A stretch of DNA of 64,000 nucleotides from Phoronis australis (lineage: Eukaryota > Animalia > Phoronida). Positions 12,687 through 64,000 of the stretch are shown piece by piece. Position 1 is the first letter of the stretch; each line of letters begins with the position of its first letter. The notes under the pieces were generated by a model. It did not search any database. It worked only from the letters and a program-made list of their open reading frames with translations, and was not told where the DNA came from. Location of the stretch: contig NMRA01000680.1 in assembly GCA_002633005.1 (NCBI GenBank), forward strand, positions 135,913-199,912. The letters run 5' to 3'. Both the position numbers and the translations under genes were made by a program.

Positions 12687-15600
12687 TCACGCTTTGGTCT
12701 CATCCTCATACAACGGACCGACTTTATTCAAATAAGGCTTAACAACATTAAACGTTGGTATCTCAACAGCGTACGGGCGGACATGGACAATGGCATCTCG
12801 AGGAATGTCTTGTACTTTCGAGCGCTGTTTTGCTCGTCGGTGAAGAATGAAGAAAACCGTTAGCGCAGTCAACAGTGTTGCAAACACAACGGACAGTATG
12901 ACGATCAACGTGGTGTGGTCTACGTCACCTGCAAATGACCAAAGAACTGACTTAGTAAACGTGCATTCTTACGTACGCCTCATAGTTTTGAGACAAGTGA
13001 ATCCATGTTTCTAACAGTAAGCATCATTTTACCAATACAAAACAATGTCTCAGATGAAAGAAAGACGCGGAGACGTGTATTTCTAAATTTTGAAATTTCA
13101 ACCAGTTAAAAACAATTGAGTACCTTCAATGATGAATGGAACGCTGATATGGAAGTCATCCTGAAGCAAATCCGCCTCAGCTTTTGAGCCGCACACGTTC
13201 TGTGGAGATGGAGATAACAAAAATAAACAGTAAAGTAGACGGCAATACACATTTCTTGGACAATTTTCAAACGCCTAATCACGATTGATTTTCACAAAAA
13301 ATCAAATACGCTACGTACAAACTTTCAAAACGAAAATTTAAAAATAGGTTTGTCGCCCTCAATGTGTTTACGATGGGTCTCGTAATCTAGGAACGGCAAC
13401 ATCATTAGCCTGGGGCGATTTATTTGGGGACTTTCACTTCTTCCGAAGTCCGCTGGTCTCACTACACGCAACCGGAAGTGTTTTCTAGGCGCACCCTAAC
13501 GGCTGAAAGTCTCCCATTAACCACAACAACATGACGTGTATGATCTAAACCGGCAGATTCTAAGGTGCTCAAACCGGTTGAGTGTCCCAATCTCGACTCA
13601 GCTGACAGTAATGGTGTGGAAGCTTCAATGATAACGTCAACAGCAACAACAAGTGCAATTCATTACTACGATAATAGGTAACAAAATTAAACATTTTAAA
13701 ACAAATTATTGGTTACGGTTCTATAAAAAGTTCATATGAAACCAGCAATGGGAATTATGTCACAGAAATGATACTGGATTGGTAGCCCAGCTAGCTGACT
13801 TCTACTTCCGCTATACTAAGTGTATAACAACAAAAGTGTGAAATCGGTAATAAATGCACCTTGATGCAAAAACTGTCATCATTTCTTGTGCAAATTTTCA
13901 GTGTTAGAGAGTAGACAATGTCTTGTCTGGATCCTGGCATAACAACACCAACTGTCGATGCGTTGAAGGGCGGTGATATCGCCTTGAAGAAGCCCTCGTC
14001 TTCTTCGAATTTCGAAAATCCATCGCTCCTCGGCCAAAACGTGCGATTGGTCTCACTCAACAGTGGGCAACTGCAATGAATTTCCAATGCGTTTACTTTC
14101 ATTCTGCTTCTACCAGTAACGGGAAATATTTAATTTTAACACCAGCTTTGGTTCTTCTTTCACTTAATTTACATTTTTTGAAAAAACGAAATTGATCAGA
14201 AATCGCAAAGGCTGTCGGTTTGACTCCAACTCTGAAATGCTTACCCTATACCACTGCTCAGCACATTGGTATGATAAATGACACTAAAGAACACAAGATA
14301 ATGTTTTAACTTAATCACAAGTTGGCCAATTATCACGCCATCGCAAAAACGAGTCTTAGTCAGGTAGAGCAATACACTGTACATCACGTAGCCACACTAC
14401 TCTGGTTAAGGGAGACACTGAAAATGTGACGCGTACACAAACAGATGCCTTTATACTTAAATCGAAGAATTCACTTTCTGACATCATTAATTGTACTGCG
14501 TACGGTGAAACTGGAGTATTACACACAATTACCATGGGCCAAAAGTACACGTGATGACCATTTTTAAATAACGACACGAACCAATTTGAATGTAACATAG
14601 CCCTGTCATTTAAGTTATTGATGTTAATCAAGCCATCTCTGGTTTCTAGGACATCCAGTAGTCCAAGGGAACTCTAGTCTGATGGTGTGCATGTTTTCTG
14701 TACATGATTCTTTCGCATTTCGCTTAATCGTCGTGCGGGACCGTCTGGAGTTGGTATATGGTGCAACTCGGGACGGTCTGGGGTCTACAGAAAACCACAG
14801 CTCAACTGTGACTCTACAACAATGTGATAAACGAGAGTAGTTCTACTTGCTGCGTCAGCTGCTGGTATGCTTATTTCTTTTATGACACACAATGTGTGAC
14901 TGGGAAAAGCGTTTTCAAAATAATTTGGATAAATCAGTGGAGTATGAGACCCCTGAGGTCCCTGTCAAGTCCTCACGGCAATTTTACGTTATGCGTACGT
15001 CATTGAACGTACGTGAAAAACAATATCTAAACATTTTCAATTATGTTACTGCATTTGCACTCGTGCGACATCGAAGACGACAATAATTGCTCATTATACA
15101 TGTACTTGCAAAAACACGAAGCATTTTGAGTGTGCCCCGATTGACTTCATTCTCGCGATGGTTTCCGGGTGCATCAGTGATTGTCGTAAGGAATGCTGAT
15201 AAAATCTTCAATGCAATGCTGTAAGGCTCAGTTCTGCCTTATTAGTAGACCTTTGGATCAGTGCATCTTCAGAATAGTGAGCTGCTCATCTGATGTGGTA
15301 GTGAACGTACAGTATGACTTAATTTATTGTGCATTTGTTACAATTAAAAGTAAAACCTCCATGAAATTAAGGTTTTGCTGGATCATATGACTTTTTTTCA
15401 AAACATTAACAAAATATTGGGGAAAACGATTACACAGAATTTTTGGGAAAAAGAAAAATGATGTTTTGATCCACAAAGATTGGTCCAAATACGTTTTACT
15501 TTGCTTTTTCGCAACATGCCGTATAGTAAAAACAAACGTTTTAAGGAGGAATACGGACCAATCATTAGCGCATCTACCCCCTTTAACAGATTCTTTAGCA

Positions 15601-20564: not shown

Positions 20565-23500
20565 TTCTTTCAAACTTTCATGAAGAGCCACCATGGCGAT
20601 CTGGGTGGGATACATCACCTGCTCAGTTAGTTCACGTTTTTTCCTGAAGGCTTGACGTGGCTTCCGCGTAGGTCTGGTATCGCACAACTACAAATAAAAC
20701 AACAATGCATTCATGGCCGCTGTTGCTGGGTTACCGGACAGGAGGTTCGCTAGCCAGGTCATGGATCATGCGAACAGTTTGATTTCCCGACGGTGTATTT
20801 TGACAATGACTTCTGCATTGTCTCTCTATGTGTTCAACATACAAATACAAATAAGCATTCAGCGAATTATTGTCATGTGTGGCAATAGTATAAATCGTTA
20901 ATGTGATACAACCTGTCCAACTACAGTGGTTTTAGTCCAGATCACGTCCTTCCCCAGATTGAAGTCATCACATGAATTACAAGATTCACACAATTCCTTC
21001 CATTCAGTGTCATCTGCAAGTATATAGGCATACAATTTAGGAAACACATTAAACCAACATGTAGCGCATCACTTTTACGAATGCAACCGGTTTCAAAAAA
21101 CTTGTCCAACGTTGAATTCTGTTACGAATCACATGCAGCTGACATTCTATGTTACACTCACTTGTCATTTACAAAAATACGCTGGTCCATATTCAAGAAC
21201 CAAGCTCTTCGTTAGACCATTTACACAGCTGAAAACCTTTTTGGATGTTGCTTACGCGTATCCACTTGATGTCATGGCAAACACCTTCTTTCCATTTACC
21301 TGCCCCTGTTAATAAGACACTAGGCAACATCAGCAAGGAAATACGTACCATGCAGTCGTGACTCGAGTTTGACTAAAAAGCCAAAGCAAGGCACGCTTAA
21401 TAGACCTTAACCGTTGTGAATCGAGTACGTGACTAAAGAAAAAATAGTTTCTGCGTGACTGAGAATTTCAACTATCAAACGCAATGTTTGCCTAAAATGT
21501 AGGGGGGCTCGAATTCTTGAGGACGTGGAACTTTTCCTAACATAATAAAAAACGGGGGAGGAAAAAAAGAAATGGGATACCACGTTCGCAGCTGTGAATT
21601 GTTTGGTCACGCCTTTATAGTGGACTTTTGTATAGTTTTCTCAGATTTTTCGTTCATTTCGCTCAGTGTTTGAAGTCCAGTGTCCGTAAAATGGGGTACG
21701 TTTCTGCGGACGGCCACTTAACAAGTGTGCAGCAGTTTGTTTACGTTAACAGCTTCGCATTTGGTTTACTGCTGTGATAAGTCATCTGGCTGTCTGTGAG
21801 TGAAATGTGCCTGAACATTAGGTTATTTAAACTGTTGCATTATTCTCATTTAATTTTGAAAGTTGATTATGAGTTGTCGACCAGCGGAATGTTCTTGGTC
21901 ACAATCGACTCACATTTGCCAAAGACACGCCTATAAATATCCATAAATAGTTCCATTGCCAAAGCAACACTGTCTGTGACCTGGCATACATATGGTGTCA
22001 TCACCCTGGGTTGTTACCAGTTGTGTAAACCGACTGGATACTAGTGTTCTAATAAACTACCCCTACGGAATGAGTTCAGACACTGAGCGTAATGTTCCTG
22101 TGATTCGGACTTTTTTGCCCCCTTCGCCACACGGGGGTATCGTTCAAGCCCCCCTGGGTGCGCGCATGTACATGGACCGCCAACTTCGTATACTTTCAAT
22201 GGACGAAATATGTGGTCTTTCGCACAAGCCCCGTTAGGTCATTCTGCACTAGCGACACCTGGCCAAATTATCTGGTCTTATATCCGGCTAATCATGGCTG
22301 GCTGTTGTGTGGTCGGGTGGTAGTAGCATTGCTAAAACTACTCACGACATCAACAGTTCTATTGTTGGAAGACTTTGATATGCGCTTCAATCCCGAATTG
22401 TTATATTTTAGTTTTACTGGACTGTGGAATAGATGCAAGAATTTCCCGTAACAATACACTAACCGGAGTATGCACAAGATACTTTAGGAGAGTGGCGCCA
22501 CCTCTAGGAAAGTACACAAAAAGATGTCGGATTTTCGAATATGTTGTCTATAATCTATGGCTTGATATGCATAAAACGTTGCATAGAGACGTCGGATAAT
22601 AGAACCCTAAGACTATAGAAACGTCTACATTTTTATTATTTTCGTACTATTGAACCGTCGCATTTCTGAACCTTCGCGCTGTAGAACCTTTTTGTGTTGC
22701 TTAATGTTTTTTTAAATACTTTGGACTGTTGAAACTTCAGACTAAGGAATTCTTTAATCATTTAGACGCACCCATCTACCATAGCCGTAGCATATTTTCA
22801 AGGTGTATTTTTGATAAGGAGTCGCTCCCCAGCAGGCTGTCCCATTGAATGTTACATCGATAAAGGATTTTGATCCAGGACAGGTAAAGAAACAACGAAC
22901 AAGTGACCTCAAAATCAACGTGTTAGTACTAAACACGCAAAACTCGTCTAACTCCACCAAACGAAATAATGCAGCTCGCAAAGTCGATGATGTTTTCACG
23001 TAAACTTCATGTCGCACAAAACCAGGGAGATTTCAGGCACTAGAAATTTTTAATTTTCAACGAAACTATAAGCCAGACTATGCTATCAAGTGGATGTCCT
23101 TATGTTTCATTAGGTCCCAAAACGGACTGTTGAACAAAAGACCTCAAGGAGACAATGCGAGCCATACAGAGGAGGTACTATCTTACCTGGGTCATAGAAC
23201 ATCAGAGCTGGAATTTGTCCCTCCCTTAAGGCTTCACGATCAAACGGAACGCTGACGTCAATAGGGTGAGAGAGCATTGCATGGTCCTCAATAGGACTGA
23301 TGAAGAACGAAGATCCGGTGTAGTCTTCAAACCTGATTTGAATATTATGATAAATGGATTGAAGTAGCGACTGGAACAACGTTAAAACATTAATGACGTT
23401 AAGTGTATCATTTTCGGGATTAGGCGTCATACTAAAGGAAATCTTTGGCAATCAGAACAACGATATTCTTCCACATCCATATCTATTTCATGCATTTCTT

Positions 23501-26500
23501 GGTTTCTGCAATTAAACAAAATTTCAATCTTAAAGGCAGCACCTTAATTTAATTCCACGAAGATTAATTTTGAACGAATGGCCAACTGGATTTTTTACTA
23601 ATTATTCCTTGTTGATGGCCAGATTAACCAGCTTCAAGTAGGATTTATCATTTTGCATTGTTTTGAAGGGGTTAAGACCCGGCTACTGTAATTAAGCAGC
23701 TGATTTACAAGGACCATAGCTTATGTTTTGACAGTTACTAAAATCGAGTTACCTGCTTTTCAATCGTCTTGAACTCATCGTTTCCTCCCTGCTAGTTTCT
23801 GGATCTTGAATATACTGCTGGAATGTTACGGAAGCAGCGGAGCCGTATCGCGCTTTGACATCGAGTTTGTTTAATGTGCCCGCAATAACGGATGTATTGC
23901 CTGAATAGCAAGAATTGTGACAGAAACCCAGAGTGAACTGCCAATTACAATTTTCCAATTCTTTCAGTTGCTGAATGTGCCATGGTGCCAGGCTAATCAT
24001 GTGCGCTTGATATGGTGTAAAGGTGTCTCAAAGGAGCTCGTGTTCTGCACAATGCAAAACAATTCAATGGTGTTTAATACATGTTTAAACTATAAAAATG
24101 CCTTAGCAAACCGTAAAAAATAATTTTAAACGATTAAGTCAAATTGCTTACAAACGAACCTACCTGTTATTTCGATTGCAATAGGAGGCAAGGTTTTGGC
24201 GGAAAGGTCTGAAGACGGCTGTTCCAAGTTCATAATCGTTGGCTTTTCGACTTCAAGTTTGCGGATTATGTCGCTCTTTCCTAAAAGTAAAGCAAAATAG
24301 TGCATATGTAGTTAGAGAAATTCATGGTGCTACATTTGTTCTGCAGACAGCCAATGGTCAAGGAAATTTCATTCTTGCTTATGAAACCGTAAACCAATCT
24401 CCTTTGGGATTATACAGGTATCATTCAAATTTTCTGGCGGCAGCTTTAACTGTACTTTTGTTCTATGCAATATGTTAAGAATTTTCTTTGCAATTTCAAC
24501 TTCGGATTTTGTGTAACCCAAATCATGTTATCAAATGAACAAACGTACTGGCCACACAAACTTCTCTCGTTGCAATATCAAGCTTTACTTTAGCCCTAGA
24601 AAGAGCAGTCAGTTTCTGGTAAGTGCACCTCCCAGGCTCCATACGGAAAAAGGTATCGCCTGCGTCTTCTGTTTCCGTTGTACTGTTACCTTTAGGCACC
24701 ACCGACAGACTGCAATAGGTAAAGTGTAATGATTTTTGTAGAGTAATAAGGCAATCCTGTGTCGATCATTGAGTGACACTTCTGAGTTGATCAAAAAGGG
24801 AGGCAAACACTGAAATAATATTTACCCATATTAATTTCTATGCGTGAGCAGCTTAGTAACTAAAAGTGCAAGAATGCAAGTTTGGCTGCAACAAAGTCAT
24901 GGATTACATAATCATAATTGATATAGTGACTATTACATTTGCATCTGAAAAATTAAGCAGGACAAATGCTTGACACATGGTTGGTATTCTTGGTAAAGAA
25001 CTTGAATTAGAGGGAAGGCTTACTATTTCTGAAGGGGCCGATGATATCAAAATTTAGTGTTTTCAAAATTATCTATGTCTATGTAAAATTGATACTTGTC
25101 AACAGAGCACCGCAGTGTCCACTATAAAAATATAACGTATATGTACTTAAAGGGAAAAATTAACCTCACTAATGTAACCATATTCTGGAAGAAATAATTA
25201 AGTACTTCATGACAACCGATATGCTCTGCTAAGAAGACAAAGTTTCATTCCCGCTTTTTTCCTGACTATACAATGTATGTTTCCAATAAAGAAGTGACAT
25301 TGTACGAAGATCGTTAATGATGCGTTAAGTTAGATGAAGACCTTCCGAATTACACAATGAATTTTTAAATTAAAAGCGAAAAAATTAATTCCGTATGATT
25401 AGGGGTCTACATTGTCAGCATACTCAGTTGGTCACGCGAGTCTCTATCCTGTTGATGAATCAGCATGGATGTAGAAACAATACCCATTATGATACCTAAG
25501 AGTCTGGTTCATTCCCACATAATGCAGTGTACCGTCCGCAATTTCCACTCCACTAGATGTCTCGCTACCAGCCAGAATGGTAGGCAATATGTCCGAGACG
25601 TCGTTGTGGGAGCCTATTCCCCATTCTGCAAGTTAACGGAAGTCATTAGTAAAGCCATGTCAACATCCTCAGATTTTCTATACGACCTCGAGTTCAACTT
25701 TAGCAGCACAGCTTAGTACACGTCAATTGTCTTGTGCGGCTTTGCATACACCTAGTTAGCTCGAAAAATCTTGTCGGACTAACTGCGCACGCAATCTAAT
25801 TCGGTTGCGTGCAACAGTCGAATACGAAAGTAGACTTCTGTACACGTGGTTCATTAAAAATTCGAAGTGTGTATACAAGGCTAAAAAACACTCGTATCAG
25901 TTGAATGTTTTATGTTAAAAATTAACTTGCAAGGTTCCCATTCTTACTGTGCATAAACAACAATAAGCTAAACTCATTTACAGGATGAGCCTACTAACGA
26001 AATTTGTAGAACATACCGATAGATGCTGAAGTCTTGGTTTTAATTTTCCATCCAATCCCTGTGGTTGTCATGAAATCTGTTATCAGGACTCCTTCAGGTA
26101 AACCTTTGATTGTTCTCGTATTTGGCAACTCAATGCTGATAACTTCAATGTCAGGCGGTTCGAAGTCAGTGGTTACATTACACGAAGATCGGGAGCTTAA
26201 GCCGAGAACGTTAATAGCGTCCACGTTGAACCAGTACCTTTTTCCATGAAAAAAGTCTTTTTTGAATTTGTTCCTTTCAAAAACAAATTCTTTAACAGTA
26301 CCAACACTTTCTCTGGTCACAATGTCATCTAAACCTTCCTCTGAACCCACTGATAATACGTAAGTCGACACGTCTGATTCAACGTCTTCACATTCCCAGT
26401 AGGCCCCGATACCTTCTTTTGAACCAAGATATTCTGTGGGTTCTGCCGTTGAGCCTTTGGGATCCAAACAGAGTACCTGAGTGCATGTAGGCGGTGTAGT

Positions 26501-29500
26501 GTCCACTCGCAACCCGTCACCAACTACTATAACCGAACGTGAAGCAAAATCAACCGCTTTGACGACCAGGTAGTAAATGTTCGGTTGAAAATAGTACTCA
26601 TTTTTGTCCATTGCTGAACGACTTTCCGGAGGCAACAGTTTCATAGATCCAGGTGACAAGGTTAAGTCCACGAGACTAAAGTGGTGCACAATAAAGCCTT
26701 TCAGGCTACATGAGGGATCGCACGTCAAATCGCACGTGCTTTTGCAAGTTGCGCACGGAGTCTTCACTAATGATAACGGATAAACATCGCAACTAACGTT
26801 AGCCTGACTGCTTAGACCTATCCAGAGCTCCTTTATGTTACTGGCTTCATCATGAAACGCTTTACCAAACATACAGGGCTCGTCTCTTTCCAACGCAAGG
26901 GAAACTTCTTCGACAATTGCATTGGTTCTTTTAAGATCGGGAAAATAATCGTTTCTGTTCCAAACGCGAAAACCCACGTTCGCCGACTTCACTTGTTTTA
27001 TTCCGTACAATGTTGCCACCTCCTCGCTAGAAATCATGAGTCTAGTATTCCACCTTTCGAATCCAGTAGACGCATCTTTGTCAAAAACAATGGAATATTT
27101 CATCGAGTTCTCAAAAGGGTTGTGCTCAAGTGTTACCCATTCTTTCATTATTGAATTGTCGACACCTACACCCCAGAACAAGGCAGGGAATTTTCCATTT
27201 CGTTTCCCTCCAATGACATGAAATCCTACAGCAGGTTGGAGATGTACCATTTCTTCTTCAGTTGCGGAATGGTTCCCTTGGATATTGACTGTTGTGTTAG
27301 ACCTTTGGAGATCGGTTGCATTTGACACGCTTGTTCCTGTCGTATTATATGTTGCATGACTCGTGTTCTCAAACACGAAGCTGTAAAACGGCATAAACTT
27401 CTCGTTACTGGACACGTAAAATGTTGTGATGACTTCACTCCCTTCAGCGGCTTTAAATACTGTTGTGTAGGCGCCTTCGAATATGGTGGTGAAAAGTTGG
27501 AAACCAGCGAGAGACATCGCCTTTCCCTCGTCAATGGTTTCGGCTACCAAGACGAGACTTCCGTTGTCGCCCGGATAAGTATTTTCACTGTTATAAAATG
27601 CATATTTCCCGGTGAAATCTTCATCCTTACCAAGAATATTTATGGCATTAGAAACAGTATTACCGACAACAAGATCTACTCGTATATCCGTTTTGCAATC
27701 TGTCTGTTTTATGCCATGGTCTATAGCCACCATCGTGTCGATAGAATGCAAAGACGTTTGAAACAACAACGAATTTGTCCACTCAGAACCATATTTTACA
27801 GAGCCTCCGACTGGCGGTGAATTGTCAACCATTACAGGAACACTCCAGCCAGTTGATGACAAGCCAGCACTGTTGGTGACCTCAACCATGACGTAGTATA
27901 TGGTTGACTGCTGAAGAGATAAGCCTTCGAACAACGTAGCGTTGTCACGTGAGATGCGTACAGGAGATGCAATGTTCAGTAACTGGCTTTCATGAAAAGT
28001 ACGATCACTACACTCGTTTTGTTTATAAACAGACACGTCATAATAGGCAATTCCACTTTCTGTGTCACTGAATTGATCCCATTCAACATAAAGACTGCTT
28101 TTGAGTGGTACAAACGAGATGTGGCCTACTGTGGTGCCATCAATACGAATGTTTCCAACAGACGGTGCTGTCAAATCGATGGTGACAGGAGACGATTGTA
28201 CAAGGAGACAGTGGTCGGCAACATCGTGAGCCACAACAGTTACAAAATATTGAGCTCCGTGCTTTAGCGATAGATTTAAAAATACTGTCACCGTGTCAAG
28301 TCCCACACTTTTCAAAGGAGACGTGTCAAATACTGAATAATTTAGGTTCTTGCAAGAACACGATGTAAGGGACGAAGATAAGCCGACGTCATATCGTAAC
28401 AATGGTATGTGAGTACGGAAACTCGACCACGACGCCTTGAGCGAGAGTATATCCGACTGTGCGCTGTTTACATAGACAGTTCCAGCGGTAATAGAGTTAT
28501 TATACCCCACAAGTATTCCATTGGATGAAACATACACGGTACTTCCTGCAGCACTGTGGGCCAACACTGTCACGTAATATCTCGTCGATATGGCTTGAAG
28601 ATCAAGTTTAGTGAACATGTACTTCGTGCTTAGCCCGACATCAACAAACGAATGTATATTTGCCCTCCCGCTAAAAGTGCTTACGTCATTCCCCACAGCA
28701 ACTTCGTACTTCACAATTAGTTGACTAGGGTTACTACTTTCGTCGTCGCCAAACTTATACCACCTTGCTTGAAGTGTGTCGAGAGGCTGTTGATATTCAA
28801 GATCCATTTCATCTCCATCGATAACTACCCCTGGTTTGGGCGACTCTATGTTTACAGTTACTGTGTTAGTTTTTGCAACCAATGTTCTTTGTAAGCTGTC
28901 CACTATTTCAACTAGAGCGTAATACGTTTTCGTATTTTCCAAGTTCAACTCATCGTTTACCAATACATTTCGTGGACTGGGAACACTAACCATAGGTGCC
29001 ACTACCTGCCCATCAATTCGGTATATACCCCATCTAAGACTTTCTACCGAGCACCCTCCTATCAATGTCCATGAGACACTAACAGACGACAACGACATTT
29101 GGTATCTCAATTCTTGATCATGACTTCCAACAAACGCATGAAACTCAGGAAGCGGACTAACAGTTACGGGTTTACTGACAACTGTGGAAAATAAGCCAAC
29201 CATGTCAAAGGCTCTGACTGTTACGAACACTCGAGACCCAGGCTGTAGAGGACGTTTAGGCGTTAAACTAACGAAATCTTGGAGACCAATGCTAGTTGGA
29301 GAGAGAACGTCTTCTGTGTGTGGCTTAGTTCCTAGCAGAACATCGTATCTACAATGATGATAATACATTTTAAGTGAACATATTCTAATAGGCTGACAGT
29401 GACAGCCGACTTATACTCATGTGATTTACAGTTACAATAAACTCGAGTTCCGTCGATGAAACAAAATTTTGATTTGAACCAATTAATCCAAATGGACTCG

Positions 29501-32500
29501 TCTGCATTTGTTCCCCCTCAGATGAAAAGTAATACGGTAGCACGGCTAAGCTTACCTCTGAAGTCCAGACTGCCGGTCAACGAATCTTGAGATCTGGACG
29601 TTTATTTCGGTCATTGATATCTGGCATGGCGTCTCATCCTCACGTTTCCCACTTACGATTTGTACAGTGCCACCATCAGGCGGTATGTTGTCAACTTTGA
29701 CTTCAGCAGATAGCCAAGTAAACTGATGTAGATAATTGCTCACATTCAAAGTAACATATACGGACGTCAGGGTTGATGTTTCAAGAACATGGTGCATATT
29801 AAATGTGCGCTTGTTGTTAATCGCGCTGCTTGGCGAAAACTGTATCAGATTATCAAATCCTTCCTGTTCCCCAACCCCAACAGCTAATTCGGAGATGAAA
29901 CTCTCGTGTTCGTCTACCGCCCACTCACACGTGATCAGGGACTCCAACGGCGATACGTAGTCATTGCAACTCAAAGAAATTATCTTAGGTTCAGTTGCAT
30001 CAATCGTGAGTGGCGGCCAAGTTTTCTCAGCTAAATTGCCTGCTGCATCCATTGCCTCAACAGTCAAAAACCCTGTCTGCGAGTTGTTGATCGATAAATC
30101 GCCAGTAGGCAGCAGCATATTTACGGCGACAGTTTCTGCTTGAAAGTCCCTTTTTCCAGGAAGAGAACCATAGTGCCAAATTTGATGCGCAACATCCGAT
30201 TCTTTGTCGGTACAATTCCAGGAATAGAGGCTCGTGTCAAAGTACTGGAGGTAGATGGCAGTTTTTTCATGTACATTAACAGTAATTTGAGGTGGCTCGG
30301 CATCGACAATAACGCCATCAGATGAGGAAACGATGAATTCCTCAGGGCAGCCATGCCCAGTAATAGCTCTGACTGTGCCATAATACACGTGGTTGGTACT
30401 CAGTCTGATGTTGGATTGCGCTATTCCCGATGTTTCATTTTCCATCACAATGCCGTACGTTGAAAAGCCTTGTATATCTGAAAATCCTGGCTCTGATCCA
30501 ATAGCCCATTCATAAGCAACTATTCCACACGCTTCACTTTCAAAGCCGTGGAAGTTGATGGCAAACGAAGACAAGTCATGCTGGTAGTTATCGTCCATTC
30601 CAAAATTTCGACCATCGAAAATTACTCCAGGAACATTGTCTTTCACGACAAATATTGGTTTTGAAGATATTGGATCAGAGACCAACCCAGCACCGTTTAC
30701 GCTTTTCACCGTGACGTAATAGAGTACGTGTGATATACTCCACGGCTGCAAATCTAGACCACTGATGTGGCCGTGCATAGCTACCCCAAAGTCTCTGAAG
30801 CCACCGGATATCGAATCATCTCCTTCATTGACTCCTACAGCCACTTGGTAAGATACTATTCCACTGTGGTCGTCGTGTCCATGCCAAGAGGCTAGGATGC
30901 GATTCTGCTCCAGGTGCTCAACTTGTCCGTTGTCGTTCACCACTTCCTCGTCCAGTGACAGACCCACGATAACCTGAAGTTAAATCACTTGGACTATTAC
31001 GATAAACGTACTTGACACATACAAAAACACAGAAACGGTATCAAACATTAATCAACACTGAACAGCATTCATTGTTTTTCAACAAAATTTAGTCATTCAG
31101 AAATTAAAATGTGGCGTAACATCACCATCAGCACTGCTTTTACTGACAAATGTCACAAAAAACACTCGAGCGGTAATTTTAGGAGTAACAACTTCATTTT
31201 GTAAGCCAGGGTTTCGAGGGCAAATTAGCGTGTGGACTAATTTAAACACCACCAAATGTATAAAAGCATCCACTTCAAATCAAAGGCAAGTTTCGCGAAA
31301 CTTTCAGGCCGAACTCTGCTAAATTAAGACCATTCTGATTTAGCCTGCAGTAGTTTCAGAAAATTACTTGAGGCAAAAACCGGTCTTAGTTAAGACCGGG
31401 ATTAGCTTGCTACGGAGTAGCCTCTGATAGGTTTCCGGGCGTAATGAATTGCTGTGATCGTTGATACTTTTGCAGTTGATAAAACGAAGCGCATATTTTA
31501 AGTGACATTATTCTAAGAACAGGACAAGATGAAAAAAGAGCCACCAACCGGATAAATGAAATGCTGCTAAAATTTAAGATAGTAGATACTAACGCTGTCC
31601 ATTTCAGGAGCAGTGGTGTCAACGCGAACGCCATCTGACTCGTGTGTAGTAGAGAGCTGTGCGTGATTGATTGCCGTTACTTTAACGGTATAACGGGCGC
31701 CGTCTATGAGTTCCATTGACATCGTGGTGTTCATTGGCTCCAGACCACCAGAGGGCAGCACAATGTCATCCTTTTGAACGGGCCATATTTTAGACTTGTG
31801 ACCTTGGTAATCCATAAACACAGACACTCGGTATTGTGCTACTCCGGACTCCGAATCTTCAAATTTCCACTTGGCAAATATGCTGTCATCCTGTGTCTGA
31901 TAAAGTAGCCCGTTTTCGCTGTCCACTAATAATATCAAAATAGGTGGAGACAAATCCACGGCATATCCATCAGACTTAACCTTCGTAATGCTACCTGCTC
32001 CATTCTTCGCACCAACTTCTATATTCACACGATCGCCATTTTCCAAAGCCATCGAATGCTCTTCAAATTTTGTTGACAACCCATTTGTAAACGATTTTCG
32101 GAGTTCTTTATTAACGTACACGTTGACGATGTACTGCGCTATGTCACTTTCTAAGTCCTTAAAGCCTTCAAAATGAGCAGTGATTTCTGACTGTTTGTGT
32201 GTGTAAGCAATGTCCTTTCCAGCCTCCTTGCCGTCTTTAATCCAACCTTTTTCAGGAGGGGTGATGTCAATCAAAACTGAAAGGGTGACGACACATTTTA
32301 CAATTACTTAAGTGGCATACAGCGCGATGACAAATATAGACCCTAATTGCTGTCGGCAAAATGGAATATCGTGACAATTAAATGCCACATTTTCAGCTAA
32401 CTTAGTGACCTTGAAGGATAGATTTTCCACAAATCATAAAGAGTAAAAAGGCAAACGAGCAGAAATTATCGTTATCTAACCTGGTCCTTTTTCTAAAAAT

Positions 32501-35500: not shown

Positions 35501-38500
35501 GTTCGAATTCGACTACAATGATCTAGCTTCTCTGGTTAATTTGAAGAGCTTGAACACGTTTCACCCTTTAAAATTCGTGACTCGTTCACTGGTGGTTTCT
35601 GTACATATTTTGATCAAAAGACGATGCCTTCTTCTACAAGAGCAACGCGGAGCGTTGAAATGCGCCCACGAATGCATCGCAAATGGTGTGCTTTTAGGGT
35701 TATTTATTTGCATCATAAAAATGGCCACTAGATGGCGCTAAAACGTACAATCCAGCCAAATATAGCTATGGATGCAAAACAAAACAACACAGAGCAACCA
35801 CTAGGAGGCGACACAGTAGTCAGTCGCCATCATCAAGCGTTCTCTTCACACATTTAAGAACATTTCAATTTTCAAAACCATCCCTAGAAGGATTTGGTTG
35901 ACCAGGGTTTGAAAACAGCAAAAATGGCCTCTAGGTGGCGCAACTTACCTAGATTTCATCCACAGACAGGAGCAAAGCGTCATCTCTTCAATAGATGCCC
36001 ACATTCAAAATTTTATGAAAATCTGTTTTGGACCTTTGAAGATACAGAGGTAAACGTAAACAACTAAAATTGACACTTGGGGGCACACGAGTGGTCAGAT
36101 CCTCCGAAAGTCGTCGTTGTTCGTTGTCAACATCATATAAATACACTTGCTAAATCAAGTAAAGATCCTGCAAACGGTTTAGGAAATACAGCCATGAGCG
36201 CAAAAAAACTGCCAACAGGAGGCACTACAATAATCGATGTTGGAAAATCATCGTCATCCGTCCACTTCATAGTTAAAACATACATGGCATTTTTCACAAT
36301 TATCCTGAAAGCAGTTTGGTTGATAGACGAGTGGACGACAATCGAAAACAGTAAAAATGGCCACTAGGTGGCGCAAACTAGGTCGAATCCATCTGAAAAT
36401 GGAGAGATAGCGTCACCTATTAACAGATGCCTGTATGCCAAATTTTATGAAAATACATTGAGGACCTTTGAAGAAAGAGAGGTAAACGTAAAAAAATAAA
36501 ATTGCCACTAGATGGCACACCAGCAGTCAGATCTGTCTGATAGTTGTCATTCTGCGTTATTAACATCATATAAATGCACTTGCTGAATTTAGTAAAGATC
36601 CTGCAAATGGTTTAGGAGATACAGCCATAGGCGCAAAAATGCCACTAGGAGGCGCCACAGTAGTTGAAGTCGTCAGAAAACTATCGTCAGCCGTCCACTT
36701 CATTGTAAGAACATACATGACAATTTTCGCAATCATCCTTTGAGCAGTTTGGTTGATGGAGGGATGGACGCCAGAAAACACACTCGAAAGCAGTAAAATC
36801 GGCCACTATATAGGTGGAGCAAAATACATGTACGTCGAATCCATCCGAAAACGAAAGGATAGCGTCACCTCATAGATGCCTATGTGCCAAATTTCATGAA
36901 AATCGGTTGAGGACGTTTCAAGATACAGAGGCAAACGTAAAAAATTAAAATTGCCACCAGGGGGCACAGCGGTATTTGGATCGGTACGAAACTCGTCGCC
37001 CTCTATCGTCAACCCCATAGGAACACACCAGCCAAATTTCAATAAGATCCTGCAAGGGGTTTAGGAGATACATCCGCGGACGCCGCACGCCTGACGCCCG
37101 GACGCCCAGACAGAGATGACGGCACTAAGCACCCACATATAAACATGTGGGCGCATAAAAATTAGATCTCAGTACTTCCGATAATCTAGATTTGGTCAAA
37201 TTATTTGGCTGATCGACGGTCACTTTACAAGGTTGATGTATATGATTTTATCAAAAGAGATGAACTTTTCTAAAATCATATCAGTAGATCCAATCATTTT
37301 GATTCGGTCAGATTATTTGGTTAACGATCATTTAACAAGATATAAAAGAACAATTACCGTTGTCGATGGCTCTCAATCTAATCCACGCAGGTACGCCATC
37401 CTTCAGTCCCAAATTCTTAATAACAATATGTGTTTTTTCATTCGATTTGTGCACATAAGGCGAATATCCCCGCACGTTTACGTCGTACTTTGTGTGCCCA
37501 AGACCAAAATCAACTCTGGATACACCAGACAGGTGATCAGAGACATTGTAATAAAGGAACAGCGTATCGAACTCCTCATCGTAAAAGTAGCTGCCAACTG
37601 AGTGAACTTCCGGTTTTACAGTATCAATGACAACGGGTTTAGAGTGGCAGACTGTAGTTACAAGGGCTCCACCAAACACAACGTTGTTAATTGCTTGCAC
37701 GGTTACAAAGTATTGTCCATCTTTCAAATGCAACCCTGATGTCATGCCGTTGTGAGTCCAATATGAGCTATCTGAAAGGTGTTTGTGAGGGTCATCGTAC
37801 GGACTGACGTCTTCTCCGCAAACTGACGTTCCAGCCGCCCACGTGTAACCCCAAATGCCTGTTTCTTTATCTTCAAACCCGTCCCAGTGACCTGTCGACC
37901 AAAAGACAATGAGTTTGATTAGTCAATAGAAGCCTTGGTTTAGAGATGTCAAAAAAAATTGAGAAGAAATGAAATTCAAGGACGTACATGTAATATCGAA
38001 TATTGCTCAAACGATACTTTTGAAAGTTACACATAGATTTAATTAAACGAATCAAATTGGGGAAAACAGATCTCATTGGTAGAACCATAGACTATAGTGC
38101 ACACCGCTAATTACATTATTCTTTCAACGCACACGTTCTGCAATCTTGCGCACAACAATAGTGTAATTTCATTACTGGACACGACGTCATTAATCACGCG
38201 GTTTCTAGTGTGATGGCACTTCCAGCAACTACATGTAAATACATGTACATGGTATGTTTACTGACGGGAAACGTAACCGAGACTAGACGGTTCAGATCTT
38301 TGCTAGCCATAGAAATCGCGTCGAGTAACTTGGCCACGAAAGCTGCTCCCTCCAAACTAGTGCAATGGTAGTCTTTTGCATTTAGTGGACTTTTCATATT
38401 GGGGCTCTCTAGAGTAATGAGAGCAAGAGAGGCTGTTTGGTCACGACTCAGGTTTGGCGGAGCGAAATTCAATTACTACGTACATGGCTGTTCGTTAATT

Positions 38501-41500
38501 GAAAGTCAGAGAAATAAGTCCCACTGGAAGACGCTCCTATTGTTTGACTAGCTTAGATGATTAATTTATGTTACACTGTATGTCAGATTTTAGTGTAGAT
38601 CCTAGCATAATTCAGTGAACTCTACCCTGATAGCCGTCCGGCAGGTGAGTGAATTTCAATACTACTTGGCTTATTTAAAAGTCAGGTATCCCATGCTGAT
38701 GTGAGCTGTGAAACAGAAACAAAATTATAATCTCATTGTCGGCGTATGTTGAGCCGATTTATCGCGTAACAAATGCGCAGAACTGATGCGACACCTATGT
38801 CAAGCTGATTAACTTCCGAGAATACCACCTTAAAGCAACGGATTTTGTATCAGTTTAGATCGAACAGTTGCACTCGATAACTGCGAGTTAATTCCTGTTA
38901 CCTGACACAAGTCAGCACTTTACAAGACGCTTACATGTACTTGTGTCAGCTCATTGCTTGACTTCGTCGTTTTACACCAAGATATCGTCAAAGTTTGATT
39001 CAAAACCCTTCCAAATACATTGAGTTTCTAGGCAAACGAGATGTTTTATTTAGCTGTTACTGATTTTATTTGAACGTATCGCAGGTTGCAAAGTTCGGTG
39101 GACCTGTTTGGTGACAAATTTGAATTACTCTTCCGTAAAATACAGACAATAGGACACAGCTGTGTGTTGTAGTTTTAGACTTAGGATTTTTTCATTTCTA
39201 AGCACACATAACACAGTAGCTAAGAACCCGATCAGGCCGCTGAGGACTGGAGACATCACCTGCCGGGTTAGTCGGCTGCCAGAAAAAAGTTCCAGTCAAG
39301 AAAAGACTCGACTAGTGAACCAAAGAAATAAGGTGCGCGTGAATTGGCCACGAAATTGCAAATAAGGTTGCTCTTCCAGTGAACCGCCAGGGCAAAAGTT
39401 ACAATTCCAATATATATAAGACATATACATATGCACATACATATACATAAATACATACATACGAAAAAACACACACACACACACACAAACACACACTACA
39501 GCTTTCTGTCTGCAGAATTCTGAATGAGCATGCGCTCACACGGCCTGGGTGCCCGCTCAATTAGAAGTGAACTTTAAGCTGTTAATGCAGTGTGATTTAC
39601 TCATTGTTGGTTTCTTAAAACATTTGCATTCACGAACATGCGGATGGCATTACAAGTTGTATCCACTGAGACAGACTTTTAGTTACAAATTTACATGAAC
39701 TTTTGTTAGGGGGACAATATTTGATTTTGAAATAGAACGCACTATAATAAAGGTCTATATGTACATGACTAGTTAAAATCAGACACGGAGGTCTTTCACG
39801 CCCTCGTACTTGGTATTAACGACGAACTTTTCATTCTTTACTGCCACAATACATTTCCGAAGCATATGGGTTTTCAGACGAAATAAAAAACGATATACCA
39901 CTGACGTCGTTGCGTCGTGTACTCGTCTGTCTCTCAGGTTAACGCGACACTTGGCGAGGTAAACTCGACCGTATAGGAGGTGATTTGGATATAGACCGAT
40001 TAAGACGGTAGAACACGAATTAAATCGGGTGGCATTTACCGTTAAGAAAGTCAAGACGGACATGACCATGGCTATGTTTTCTGCTTGCACGAAGCCGAAA
40101 GCGCGCTGGATTCTGAAGCGAAGCTAACGAACCAAACTTTGAATCCATAACGGAAGAGAGCGGTGCCTCCTCTATAATTGCATCGAAAAATATAGAAGTT
40201 GCTTGTCTATTGTCCATGATTTGCATGTATGGTAACATGACATACGCTTAAGGAGATATACATGTACCTGAGATGTAGTTATTGCTCATGGTGTACTCTA
40301 AATCGACTGTTTTCTCGTGACCATTCAAAATTGTGCTTGATCCAATTCCATCTTTTATGACACTGAAACACGCCAAAATGACCCCAGTCCAATTAAAGAC
40401 GTTCAGGTGATGACAAAATTTTGATAACGAAGTTGCCTTCTGTATACGTGTGACTAACATCTGCAATGGGAGACTGGGAATAGAATGAAACACATATTTA
40501 GCACACACTCCCAGACTTTTTGTAATGATACTTTAACAGTGTTACCGATTCAATTGATAAAGTGAAAGGAGATGACTGATATTACTCAGTGCTGTAGTGA
40601 CAAGATTAGAGGTACTGTAAGTAGGCGCACAAAGCCCACCGTTTCACTTTGAGCACTAAACGTAACTTACAGCGCGTAGGCGCTACATGTTCAAATGCCA
40701 AAAGGTGATTGGCTGCTCCTACGTGCGCCTACGCCCACTACAGCACTAATTTTACTCATTCAGTCAAAGGTGTCGTACATGTACTTCCCTCACTTATAAA
40801 TCCTCTTACCGGTGGTTTGGGTGCCATGTTAATTCCGTGCACCGTTGCGTAACTGACGCGTTACACCCATCATGTCGCAAGATGTCCAGGCTTGCATTTG
40901 CAATGGGTCCAGGCTCAGGGGGAGTGAAGTCGACGACTGTGCCTTTCGACGACAAGTAACTCTCATAGCCTAATTCATTTGTGATATGAACATTAATGAA
41001 ATACTCCTGGGAATGACTAAGTGGGAGGTCGTCGTACTCGAACATGTGACTATGACCAATAAGCCTTTGGTAATTGTGAAAAGCGCCGCTGTGTGTTAAC
41101 TTGGAAAATTCGCCATCTATGGTGTTCTGCAAAAGACACTGTTCACTCTGGGGATTGTAATCGAAAGAAATACATTTTGTTTCAAATTTAATACATTCAG
41201 CCGCACATATCAGATCAGAAAATGCTTTAAAAGTACGAAATGCCTCCGAATCCAGCCTTCCACGCCTAGGGTAGCCAAAGTGTTTCAATTCGTTCGACAT
41301 ATCGTCGTTCTGTGTTATTGCTGATGGTTTGAACGGTTCCCAGTCTCTAATCGTGTTGCCAAATGGTCCCCGGCCAACGCCAACAGCCTTGTACTGTATT
41401 GGCTCCAATGGAGAATCATCGTGTACGAACACGGTGGCACTTAATTTGTGGGGGTGACTTGAAAACTCGTACGAGGCATCCACTCTTCCGTTTGGAAGCG

Positions 41501-50500: not shown

Positions 50501-53500
50501 ACAACTGAAGAACCATCTGCTCAAATGAACCTCGAGGTTCAGTCTTCTTCGCTCGTAGCATACTTCGAAGTTTGCTTGGGCTGAACGTCATGGGGTGTTG
50601 GATGGGTTGGTCTTGAAGAGTTGCAGAGAATTCGGCCACTAAATCCATCAGTCTCATCTTCGTGTCAAGTTGACCTCCATCCTCTAAAATCTTGCTTATT
50701 TTGGCCAGCGTGAATTTGTTGACATTGAACGCGTCCAAAATATTTGGTGGGCGCCTAAAACACAACAGTTGTCGATCAAAATACAATTGCAAATCAGCAC
50801 TAAATTTACCGAAGTAGCTGATCAAACAGTGTAAGGCATATGACAATAACAAAGCATCATAACGAGAGATGGCGGAAGTACAAGTAAAATTAAATGGGTC
50901 AGACGTAAGAAACAGAAGCGCATACCGCTTACCTGTCATTTTTGGAGGACATGGCATTATCTTTAAAATTTTTAAGTTTTCCCATAGTTGTCAAAATTTC
51001 AACTGTGCTCTTTTTCTCCTCTTCAATTGTTTCTTCAAGATTTGTTTTCGCCTTTTTCATCAAATCTTCAACTCCATTTTTTGCCAATTTCTTGAAAGAC
51101 GAAATCTTCTTAGATACTTTAGATTTCAATTTTCCAGATATGGATTTGAAAAAGTTCGAAGTTTTAGGTTTTTTGGTGTTTTTACTACGACTTTTGTTTT
51201 TTCTCTGTTTCCAAGCTTTCTTTGCTTTCTTCAATAGCTTTTTGGGCAGGCCAAAGCGCTTTTTGGCAACCGTTTGTCCTATGAATTCGAAAGACAATTC
51301 GTTACAATGCTCCGTCCAGCGTGGGAAGGGAACCAGTCTTTCCACAAATGGAGTCGGGTCCACGTATTTGTAATCGTCGTCNTCTCTTTCTTGTGCTTCC
51401 ACTTCGCAGTCTTGGAAAGTTTTCGTGTGACAAGATGTATAAACTTCAGGTTGCATTCCGATTTCATGGAAAATCCGATCACCTCTCCTTCCCCAAGAGT
51501 CACTCCGTCGTTGGTGATATTTTCGTGTGGTAAAATATTTGAAATGATGATTTCGTATTTTTTGAAGTTTGCGTCTTCCGGATATATTACGACTTCATGG
51601 TTGTTTTTTCTTTTGACACAACCAACTACCGGACTAACAATCTGGAAATAAAATTGCAGCCTCAGAATTGCTACCAGAATAGTCACAGCTACCGCTAGGC
51701 GATAAGAAATGAATAGTGACAAAACGTTGTGTTGTGGCAATTATCTGATAAAGAACTGGGGCGTTGCAAACACCATAGCACGCAAAAGAGATGTTTACAT
51801 AGAAGTTGACAGTTCATGCTATTGTTCACTTGTTGACTATCACGCAGCAATGGCAACAGTTCCGATCTTAATTCCAGAATAGTCTAAAGTAGACCAAAAC
51901 TGATTTGGACATTCTACATTCATCTACACCGAAAAAGCACCGATGTAGAAACATTTCCATTAGTAAAATATTGTGAGTTTTTATTTTTAACTGTACGAAG
52001 GTGGTAGTCTGCCATTTAGGTTGGCAAATTCACAAATCGGTCTAAAGCAATGCTTTTGTCGTTGTGAATGTTTAAAAGTGCGACTGATGACAACCGACTG
52101 GCAGTCCGTCATTGTGTTTCTCGGAAGGCTTTCCAGCCTCTTCACAGAGGCAGAAGCTCCGTTTTGCGACACATGTTTAATCAATAATTATAGAAAGAAT
52201 CTTGGCGGCGATGTATAGTTTTACATGTGGATAAAAGTTGCCAGAGGCAAAAAGATTGTTAGAAGTGTTACAAGCTTGACTGGAAGTAACCCACGAACTG
52301 CCAATGATGCCTTCACAGCAAAACTCAAGCTCAGTCGGTATGGGAGAAGAAGGACCAACAATATAATCTCGCCTTTAAGGTTTGCAAATGAGCACTCATC
52401 TTGTAAGAAACAGCCTATACGTCAACGAAGATTAAATCAATGGTATGTTCTTAAATAGCGCAATTGTTCTTGCAAGTTTGCTGATCTTACTAAACTATGC
52501 AAGCGGACGTCGGAACGTGAATGTAATGTTACCACCTTTTTACCGTGTACTAGCAATGCATGACTGGAATGTTAAATAATGTAACTTCTTAATTTCCATG
52601 ATACAAGAAACGACTGCGGCGACCAAGAGATAGTGAAAAACAATCAACTCACCTTGCCGTCTCTTGGCGCCTCAACATCAATACCTTTAAGCCCGTTGAT
52701 TGATTTTGAACCAAATACGCCATCAGCGCATCTGTGGACGTCGGGGTCGACACGGCGTGTAGGAAACTGAGCATTGAACTTGGGTCCAAAGGCCTTTCGT
52801 ATTAGAGACCTGGTTTTATCAACCCTAAAAAAGACGTACCCGTGGCGGTGCGCTAACTGAGCAGTGTGAATTTACACAAAGTACATGTAATACTATGCAA
52901 ACTAAATTAAACCAAGTTGATATACAAGTATGTAATATGCCACTCATCGTACAAGAAAAGATCTAGATTTGATTATGCTGGGTTCTGACGACATGCTAAC
53001 ACTGCGTTCTATTGTTAAAAGAAGCCGTTAGCCAGATGTTACCGCATACTTACACAGTTTTCAATTCCATGTATGAATTCTTGATACTGCGGATTGCGTC
53101 AAAAACTGATGTGTAAGCCTCAACAAAGGGATCACCTAATTCAGCTAACTCGTCCAATGGGTTGAGTGTGTCTTTCAGTATCTGGAGAAACCTTGAGACA
53201 ATTTCTGCTTCTTGTTCTTCCTAAATAAAAGACCAATGCAACCACTATTATCACACAGCGTGATTCCTTTTGTGGCTTCCCCGTGATAAGTTCGATCTTC
53301 GTTTGGGATGAAATTAAAGAACGACCAGAATGCCTGAAATCGTTTTCGCATTATAACCCAGTTCTTATTCCCTGTTTTATATACACCCATATTTGGGATC
53401 ATTCAAACATAACAGTCAATGAAGACACAATCGATGATCGGATCGCATCCAGTCACAGGTTACGCCTAGCGAGTCACTTGTAGAGAATTTAAAACGTTCA

Positions 53501-61906: not shown

Positions 61907-64000
61907 CTAAAATACAAAACGGACAATAATTGTAAAGTTACTCCGCAATACGTTTTATGACCTTATACAATGTTCTATAAGTATTTGCAACTGTATCCGC
62001 TTTGTCAATTTTAGGACAAGTTCTTCGTGATGTTTAATAAAGAATTATAATTGTAGAATCCAGGTCCAAAACCCAGCTATTACGTAAAGTTAACCCAGTT
62101 ATTAGCTAATGAAATGTTGAAAAGTCCACTTACTTTAAAACGAAATCATCGGGCAGAGACCTACATGTAAGCATGACTTACATCAAAATAAATTCATTCG
62201 CATCAAGCAGCGTGGGTTATGTGATATTTAGAATGCTAATTAAATCGGATTTAGAGGGTCTTACATAACAAAAAATCTGATTGTGATTTGTACAGCTTTC
62301 TTTGTTTCATCTGAGGGGATTCCAGGGCTTCAAAGAGCTGGGACAAACGAAACGCAGAAATCACTTTCCATTTGCGAAAGAAACATGTTAACCGTTGAGT
62401 TGTTAGCATCTTTGACGAGGTTTATAGTAGCCTCAAATGTAATATTAAACCAGACCTTTCCAAAGAAAATACTTACGCAAAAACCATATTGAACTCGTCT
62501 GAGCTCACATTCCGTCGCATGGGGTGTTTTTCATAACGGTTGTGAGCTAACTCTCGCACAGTCTCGTAACGATCGTTCAGTGCCGTGTCCATGAGAACAG
62601 ATGCGCTCTAATAGGTGAAATATGTGTAACATTTTAGTTAAAGCTTACCTGTAAATATTTTTTATAAAAATAGAAGCAACATAAAACGACTCATTTACAC
62701 CCGTTTCATAAAACCAAAGGTAGTGATGTGATTTGTTTTGAAGCCAGATTCAACACTAATTACTTGACGTTAAAACTGTTAATCTCAAACTCCAGGTGCG
62801 TAGAAGAAATAATCCCAACCTATCCGAGAAGGTGGTTGCCCCAAAGTCGAGGCAGTTGAAAAGTCGAAGTCGTTAAGTCATCTCGTCGTATTCAAAACAC
62901 CTAGAAATAGCCCCACCTAGAAAATATTGACCACAAAAGTTTTTAAAGACGTGTTAATCACACTGGATTCGGTTTTATTTTATTTAAACTCATTCTTAGA
63001 TTAGTTTAGTCTCCAGTGCTGACGTGCAATTAATGCGTGGGCTATAACTGATATTTTCTAATTCACGGCAGAGTAATCTGCAGAGACTACAGACAATGAA
63101 AAATTAACATCCATATTAAAGCTTTAAAAGACCCTAGAAATCTCTCCAAAATTTCGGAACATCATACAGATGTACAAATAGCTCGTCCGCTTTACGTCAT
63201 GCTTTATTCTTTGTCTTCCAAAACTTCATTAGGAAGTGTTTTGAAAATGTTTGCAGGTTGGCCAATTGATGTTATTTAAATAAACGATCAATATGAATGT
63301 GTTGTGTCTTTTTTATGTAGAAAAACTATTGCTAAACATGTCACCTTCGCACGAATTAGAACAGAGCACAAAACATCAAAAATTTATCTAGGGAAATTCT
63401 TGCATGGCTTTGACAACGAGTAATAGGAGTTCAATCAACTTGATATTTCACGCATCAGTCCTGATGCGAATTCGGGCATCGAGGCCTGCGTAATGTTTAC
63501 TTCATTTTTATAGAAGATGCTTGTATCTGCTTCAATTGAACGCTAACCGGAAACAGAATCGGACATGACTGAAGTAGCGAAAACGCAACAGTGGAATGGT
63601 GAAGCGGTTTCTTATTTTTTGTGAAAGGATTACCCCACTTCCGGTTACTGGAGTTATGAATGCGCTATAATATGTACCTGCCCATCATCAATTAATTGAA
63701 GTGGTAACAAAGGAAATACAGTCTTAAAGCGATAATTTGTGTGAAACAAAACAAGCCTATAACTCAGTCACGACTTTAATCAAAGTGAAACAATCTTAAC
63801 ATCTGATCTATAAAGGCTCGAAAATGACAAATTTGCGAAAACTAACCGAACTTTAGACCTGAAATTGGTTATATAGACGATTAAATTTACTTTATGCCAA
63901 TTAAATTATAGCCCATATCAAAATTACCTCTTTACATGTGTACCAGCGCAAAGCGTTAATAGCCGATCGACGCCATGATGAATGACCTGCGTTTGGCTTG

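Follow-up and report, generated by a model that had tools for sequence, protein, structure and literature searches.

The 64,000-nucleotide stretch of Phoronis australis DNA analyzed here (the window; contig NMRA01000680.1) raises the question of what a block of about 250 residues, unlike any repeat, is doing within an array of FN3-like repeats. The preliminary description of this DNA had placed the block at 26895..27640 and read it as a catalytically degenerate GH16-like β-sandwich acting as a non-catalytic glycan-binding module. Examination of the window reveals eukaryotic DNA with a GC content of ~40% and, encoded on the minus strand, a single large gene of many exons; the block falls within a stop-free frame of this gene that is 1,138 codons long (25994-29410). 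The motifs on which that description was based are all found in this frame on the minus strand and in the order given: GSLVLVA (27562-27542), EGAY...YVSS (27478-27407), AVGFHVIG (27232-27209), VTLE...SIVF (27136-27083), VGFRVWN (26977-26957) and AIVEEV (26920-26903). The block scores 3.0 bits on a repeat profile that gives its neighboring repeats 15.8-77.4 bits, which bears out its non-repeat nature; the block is real, and its true extent is slightly wider than proposed (27697-26873), running from one cysteine to another (Table 1).

Table 1. Features of the phoronid gene in the window, listed from its 5' to its 3' end
Feature	Position	Strand	Basis and remarks
Exon fragment corresponding to the Vitellogenin_N/HEAT-like region of homologues	63919..63999	-	tblastn, P0056 residues 509-535, E 2.9e-5
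PAN/apple domain, upstream exon of the same gene	41076..41249	-	Pfam PAN_1, E 3.1e-5, above cut-off; collinear with homologues
3.3-kb exon with ~8 FN3-like repeats, including the host repeat	26017..29348	-	Repeat matches; 3' junction 25625|26017 GT-AG, read-supported; 5' acceptor inferred
Host repeat, N-terminal half (aa 528-571)	27698..27829	-	Profile positions 1-29; model strands 11-13, 30-37
Predicted GH16-fold (lichenase-like) jelly roll without catalytic residues	26873..27697	-	aa 572-846 (Cys572-Cys846, 275 aa)
Cys572, N-terminal end of insert	27695..27697	-	53/53; disulfide with Cys846 predicted, pairing inferred
Ser/Thr-rich loop of 58 aa with five N-glycosylation sequons, just before the dead strand	27236..27409	-	Predicted disordered
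Dead catalytic strand AVGFHVI (aa 727-733)	27212..27232	-	hhalign, model strand at residues 200-206, family counts
Trp746, near-invariant, next strand	27173..27175	-	51/53; hhalign posterior 0.16
Trp817...Tyr822, aligned to two lichenase tryptophans, the second being +1 subsite Trp192	26945..26962	-	Posteriors 0.95, 0.28
Cys846, C-terminal end of insert	26873..26875	-	53/53
Host repeat, C-terminal half (aa 847-974)	26489..26872	-	Profile positions 35-69, 81-112
Predicted last exon: hydrophobic helix (~12908-12843), basic stop-transfer, ~50-aa tail ending GPLYEDETKA	12687..12928	-	Hydropathy scan, canonical acceptor; read-supported splicing reaches 14070, short of the exon

Exons from 63999 down to ~23200 are collinear with homologues in tblastn comparisons, and the start of the gene probably lies outside the window, beyond its position 64000 side; the Vitellogenin_N assignment of the outermost fragment is by offset to the homologue P0046, whose own match covers residues 191-286. 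RNA reads were drawn from three stranded runs carrying the same species label, at ~18-19% of each run. They contain GT-AG joints of this gene from 33684 down to 14070, and none of the 15 joints listed, out of 24, falls inside the block. Read depth over 26484-27811 is 11.6-11.8 in run X6, 5.9-8.1 in X7 and 0 in X8, and the first mate of reads over the block always lies on the plus strand, which is what most stranded libraries would give for a transcript of the minus strand. The gene is thus spliced and expressed in two of the three runs, and the silence of X8 next to expression in X6 and X7 from the same study points to tissue- or stage-specific expression. As reads span the block and its frame is collinear with homologues, an artefact or intron read-through can be ruled out as its source. 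Many of the reads are merely 90-95% alike, so that other individuals or a paralogue are included among them. A 1-base insertion at 28787 in 8 of 10 X6 reads likewise points to a divergent allele or paralogue, as do the substitutions clustered at 30112-30150, which every X6 read and part of the X7 reads share. Elsewhere in the gene we noted: 1) an intronic tandem repeat of 433 bp (2.4 copies, 35636-37160) with 100-260-fold RNA coverage in all runs, mainly on one strand, which is probably a transcribed interspersed repeat family; 2) an assembly N at 51382 that coincides with a frame change between the adjoining tblastn matches 51665-51414 and 51381-51250, for which an error of assembly or a very short intron is the likely cause; 3) exons with read support that lie 3' of the FN3 array (~21000-23330) and encode PIDVSVPF...ALMFYDP..TEW, a stretch reminiscent of a ZU5-like domain.

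Searches with the insert alone against 2,263 candidates of 521-2,000 residues recovered no relatives. When its flanks were included, 7,618 candidates yielded 37 long proteins, and 65 cluster representatives were recovered as well. Iterative profiles run on these 102 proteins yielded 52 near-full-length segments, one per protein and always in the same place, which share 12-24% identity with the window copy. Together with the latter they form the 53-row alignment on which all family counts given here are based; partial matches and later cluster members, which also match, were kept out of it. Named carriers include bivalves, gastropods, the brachiopod Lingula, the nemertean Lineus, three hemichordates, amphioxus and the sponge Oscarella. 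Among the 37 long proteins 26 show no match to the insert and one more matches only at E 0.32, and cnidarian, echinoderm and Sycon proteins of the related giant FN3 type, like second paralogues of molluscs and amphioxus, showed no insert. The same layout of FN3-like repeats and dead GH16-like domain is also encoded by two metagenome contigs, L081 (27-2033) and L082 (2746-4786), both GC-rich (59-68% in L082). Their dead strand reads A-I-G-F/I-H and their frames are split as in an intron-bearing gene; they probably come from a non-animal and possibly from a unicellular eukaryote, in which latter case the domain would predate animals. These two copies also carry an extra insertion of ~200 residues in the C-terminal half of the host repeat. 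In a tree computed after removal of the variable loop, with the Lingula protein P0039 and other partial matches left out and lichenases as sole outgroup, the window copy falls in a clade of 32 rows (support 100/99) in which every named member is a mollusc, its nearest row being P0038. It is among the most diverged copies (end branch 1.59), and the lichenases form a branch 2.7 long that is nested within the ingroup, so that the tree yields neither a donor nor a root and sustains no claim of horizontal transfer.

The preliminary description was right to see an insertion in the FN3 array; a repeat profile refines its position to the inside of one FN3-like repeat rather than between two. When the halves flanking the insert are rejoined, they score 36.5 bits in the window copy, with a family median of 36.9 bits and at least 15 bits in all 53 rows, on a profile for which 72 repeats of proteins lacking the insert were used. 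Scored separately, the C-terminal half reaches at least 15 bits in 50 rows, the N-terminal half in 10 and the insert in one. The strand list of a structural model fits this arrangement: two strands precede the insert and the remainder follow it. By these profile scores the GH16-like domain is inserted within a single FN3-like repeat. The C-terminal half of this repeat also contains a cluster of five cysteines, C-x2-C-x3-C-x3-C-x3-C (C886, C889, C893, C897 and C901; 26705-26755), which is kept in 50-52 of the 53 rows and is predicted to form a small disulfide knot.

An AlphaFold2 model of residues 528-974, based on an alignment of 35 sequences, has a pLDDT of 83.5 and a pTM of 0.79, with the sequon-bearing loop alone (model residues 155-189) below 50. 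A Foldseek search with this predicted model places Bacillus lichenases on top (1u0a, E 2.4e-10). A VIA-align comparison with 48,161 chains puts the lichenase 3i4i in first place (Z 22.4, rmsd 2.8, 198 residues aligned), and this match spans model residues 46-314, exactly the region between Cys572 and Cys846. Among the best 50 VIA-align matches, ranks 1-30 are GH16 chains, mostly by entry title; laminarinases reach up to Z 20.3 and the best non-GH16 jelly roll has a Z of 15.5. Folding the insert alone gives a poorer model (pLDDT 72.3) with unchanged ranking (EG16 Z 17.9, lichenase 17.8; best match with rmsd 2.5 and 175 aligned residues). Consistent with these observations, all 19 matches of a 21-row profile of the insert against the PDB at E values up to 10 are GH16 proteins (best E 5.7e-7), namely 12 lichenases, 5 XTH/xyloglucanases and 2 kappa-carrageenases, with no laminarinase chain among them. 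The two proteins found with the insert profile among 4,816 candidates are likewise GH16, and hhalign aligns the insert with lichenases at a probability of 96% (E ~1e-9). Profile matches confined to GH16 show homology beyond a mere shared fold. The family consensus and the lichenases have in common the motifs YxxxxKA...V(T/S)S, L.FDP/A...H.Y, (I/V)DG and WN, and the order of strands is the same. Thus the proposed motif-by-motif correspondence is upheld, and the block is predicted to adopt a GH16 (lichenase-like) jelly-roll fold; the suggested comparison by Foldseek and profiles returned a jelly roll and significant GH16 matches, rather than another fold or an absence of profile matches. LamG and L-type lectins were considered as the nearest family and rejected on their lower Z scores and lack of a profile match.

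The window copy does not match the Pfam model PF00722, to which 5 of 21 family members show weak matches below the curated cut-off (best E 0.0016; the homologue P0005 scores 13.3 bits against a cut-off of 22). The window insert alone matches nothing in Pfam or, as a single sequence, in the PDB. The ESM Atlas offers a lead in the form of ConA/GH16-like clusters (0.91-0.93), with a recognition score under the reliability line. A search with the insert profile through 301 bacterial genomes from one phylum gave three matches, all lichenases with an intact ExDxE motif, and no degenerate relative was found among these genomes.

The preliminary description had noted AVGFHVIG in place of the catalytic ExDxE motif, and both profile alignment and family counts sustain this loss. 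In an hhalign comparison with 82 lichenases, V728-G-F-H-V-I-G734 is paired with I-D-I-E-I-L-G at posteriors of 0.22-0.47. With these moderate posteriors, G729 would correspond to the central Asp and H731 to the acid/base Glu. A727 may be assigned to the nucleophile Glu by contiguity, hhalign having put that Glu upstream of a gap. The loss itself does not depend on this register, because an E-x3/4-E pair at 724-735 occurs in none of the 53 rows and the strand 727-733 is free of any acid in 51. Position 727 is Gly, Ser or Ala in all rows, 729 is Gly in 51, and 731 is never Glu. As judged from these sequences, all three catalytic acids are lost family-wide, which also rules out a broken enzyme peculiar to this genome. 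Alternation along the strand would place Trp746 on the floor of the cleft next to Gly729. Further along the cleft, position 817, the equivalent of lichenase Trp184, is aromatic in 40 rows, and 822 is aromatic in 42 (Trp in just 5 of them, at an alignment posterior of 0.28). The retention of the altered site as such, with W746, His or Gln at 731 and the aromatics at 817 and 822, indicates a conserved rather than a decaying site. The loop preceding the dead strand had been noted for its sequons; it contains five (NTS, NTT, NAT, NTT and NHS; aa 682-713). Across the family this loop ranges from 38 to 140 residues within inserts of 244-368 residues, is acidic and unconserved in sequence, and bears at least one sequon in every row, at a density of 4.5 per 100 residues compared with 1.2 elsewhere. 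It may cover the cleft, and the place where it starts is compatible with this.

The proteins hosting this domain are 2,000-5,300 residues long and mostly single-pass. Pfam scans of 15 homologues give the order Vitellogenin_N/HEAT, PAN, FN3-like array, Big_9/cadherin-like and EGF, with many matches below cut-off. A C-terminal transmembrane helix (hydrophobic helix) is found in 28 of the 35 homologues examined, the other seven including truncated and apparently secreted forms, and some full-length homologues start with a signal-peptide-like sequence. The tails contain NPx[Y/F] in 6 of 28 cases, compared with 0.51 expected from shuffles, and these represent four lineages, namely amphioxus (three closely related proteins), a nemertean, a sponge and a hemichordate; YxxPhi is only mildly enriched (16 vs 10). 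The sponge homologue ends in NPLYEEAAEL, resembling the tail predicted for the window copy, which has GPLY. The host is likely a single-pass cell-surface receptor, the window copy being presumably anchored in the membrane by its predicted last exon. The host family itself (the window gene occupying ~12687-64000 on the minus strand) appears to be undescribed, combining a giant single-pass architecture with a Vitellogenin_N/HEAT-like, i.e. lipid-transfer-like, start and NPxY in some tails. It would be unusual for a relative of secreted lipid-transfer proteins to be anchored in the membrane. Different modules occur in related giant FN3 proteins, such as weak DUF642 and Peptidase_M23 matches, WAP and a C-type-lectin-like end (P0023 2708-2798, P0007 789-874, P0085 86-127 and the C-terminus of P0094/P0124), which suggests a modular ligand-binding superfamily. 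Giant single-pass ectodomains with membrane-proximal EGF repeats and NPxY tails also characterize endocytic receptors of the LDL-receptor/megalin type. The likeness of the host family, which has all three traits (NPxY in some tails), is one of analogy and not homology: Pfam scans of the homologues show no LDL-A or YWTD, and instead the Vitellogenin_N/HEAT-like, PAN, FN3-like and Big_9/cadherin-like regions.

The best structural and profile matches are GH16_21 lichenases (3wvj, 3i4i, 1u0a and 1gbg) and plant EG16 (5dzg). Unlike these, the family lacks ExDxE and the -1 aromatic platform, lies inside an animal repeat protein, and has its long glycosylated loop where lichenases have a short one. 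PMC6827312 defines GH16_21 by short loops and ~210 residues, a definition outside which the insert falls by its length. Animals are already known to have non-catalytic pattern-recognition proteins with a GH16 fold, namely βGRP/GNBP/LGBP (GH16_4) and horseshoe-crab Factor G alpha (PMC6827312, PMC6272582 and PMC6403176, the last describing insect βGRP/GNBP as non-catalytic GH16 binding proteins). The phoronid domain shares with them the fold and the lost catalytic residues. According to PMC6827312, GH16_4 derives from the laminarinase subfamily GH16_3 and ~9% of it is without catalytic residues, compared with loss in all 53 rows here. In PMC6272582, the glucanase-like domain of insect βGRP is described as neither hydrolyzing nor binding insoluble glucan, and as important in the immune response without clear glucan binding. 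Further, βGRP/GNBP are small two-domain proteins with a separate N-terminal glucan-binding module, whereas the hosts here are repeat proteins of several thousand residues, and Pfam scans of the 15 homologues show no such N-terminal module. The two may also differ in branch, the insert profile matching lichenases, XTHs and kappa-carrageenases and βGRP coming from the laminarinase branch, although laminarinases do reach the Z of 20.3 mentioned above. L-type lectins (ERGIC-53, VIP36, Emp47p) and other ConA-like proteins are likewise non-catalytic jelly rolls in type I membrane proteins; their Z scores of 13.5-15.3 are clearly under those of GH16, and they give no sequence-profile match. The domain thus resembles a pseudo-GH16 binder, yet lies outside both GH16_21 and βGRP by their defining features. 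Non-catalytic GH16 domains as such are known already; what appears to be new is a dead lichenase-like domain within an FN3-like repeat of a giant protein. A survey of molluscan glycoside hydrolases, in its available text, reports GH16 as laminarinases only and makes no mention of such a domain (PMC7560691). Literature searches, including six gene identifiers (0 matches), recovered no description of the domain or host family, most subscription journals lying outside their scope. In databases, family members are uncharacterized or named after their EGF match (Delta-like, CRB1, HEG1, NCAN), and Pfam misses the domain.

In light of these observations, we propose that the domain is the ligand-holding head of a cell-surface uptake or recognition receptor, which binds rather than cuts polysaccharide; we give this reading about an even chance of being correct, glycan binding being plausible on the predicted structure and the conservation pattern, and having a precedent in the known non-catalytic GH16 binding proteins (PMC6827312, PMC6403176). 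The putative Cys572-Cys846 disulfide would let the domain hang off the rod of repeats. With the Glu and Asp positions turned into Gly/Ser/Ala and Gly, and the near-invariant Trp likely flooring the old cleft, this floor and the retained distal aromatics could offer a stacking surface, which the glycosylated loop would flank or gate. Particles or glycoconjugates held in this way might then be linked, through the NPx[Y/F] tails, to uptake or to adaptors of the cytoskeleton. The sites by which lichenases hold their substrate provide a more equivocal picture. Their roles have been assigned to Phe92 as -1 platform, Tyr94, Trp103 and Trp192 at +1 (PMC6827312). The Phe92 position is aromatic in just 4 of the 53 rows (the window copy has Tyr665), that of Tyr94 in 20 and that of Trp103 in 12, and the upstream strand has not kept its Glu/Arg pair; these losses, and the chance that the loop covers the cleft, weaken the binding reading. 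Counting against the proposal, too, are the failure of the insect βGRP domain to bind insoluble glucan, the moderate posteriors of the catalytic-strand register, the divergence of the window copy and, for the receptor context, the close relationship of three of the six NPx[Y/F] tails, the GPLY of the window copy's predicted tail, the mild enrichment of YxxPhi and the seven homologues that have no C-terminal helix. The loss of most lichenase sugar contacts fits a structural or protein-interaction module in which the cleft is filled, by Trp over Gly together with the loop, so that the domain would act within the rod as a kink, a spacer or a place for docking and hold a mucin-like loop outward. 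Conservation is strongest at Gly, Pro, Cys and one Trp, as is typical of structure, and the presence of a sequon in every loop despite the range of loop lengths agrees with such a role, for which the βGRP glucanase-like domain, immune-relevant without clear glucan binding, would be a precedent (PMC6272582). However, His or Gln at 731 (36/53), Arg, Gln or Lys at 748 (38/53) and the aromatics at 817 and 822 are kept from sponge to chordate, which suggests a maintained ligand surface; we regard the structural reading as a serious possibility that falls somewhat short of probable. That the domain is a relic under structural constraint only, staying because its deletion would break the host repeat, could account for the low identities and long branches, and for its absence from related giant FN3 proteins in, for example, cnidarians and echinoderms. 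We consider this improbable, since one copy persists in the same place in each of the 52 homologues with an invariant new signature (G/S/A-x-G-x-H/Q and W746), and since a clean loop insert should be deletable without breaking the repeat. A surviving enzyme with non-canonical, for example His-based, chemistry or with residues supplied by the acidic loop seems very improbable, for although 731 is most often His (19/53), Gln, Ser or others take its place in 34 rows, the strand is nearly always free of acids, and the loop is unconserved and predicted to be disordered.

Building on the proposal of a ligand-holding head, a broader scenario would be that an FN3-like repeat took up a lichenase-type enzyme before the origin of animals, and that this enzyme was converted once into a polysaccharide-gripping head. 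The domain would then mark an undescribed family of giant endocytic receptors, with lipid-transfer-like N-termini and NPxY tails, that catch algal or microbial particles in sponges, molluscs, hemichordates and amphioxus. We advance this scenario tentatively, as one that is on balance unlikely; were it true, GH16-based pattern recognition would have arisen in animals a second time and independently. Irrespective of this history, the family provides a concrete, expressible candidate ligand-binding domain of 275 residues in a large receptor-like family, at a point where the recognition of food and microbes at the cell surface of filter-feeding, phagocytic invertebrates is poorly mapped. If the domain does bind glucan or algal polysaccharide, a GH16 enzyme would have been turned into a binder twice in animals, this time apparently from a branch other than that of βGRP/GNBP.
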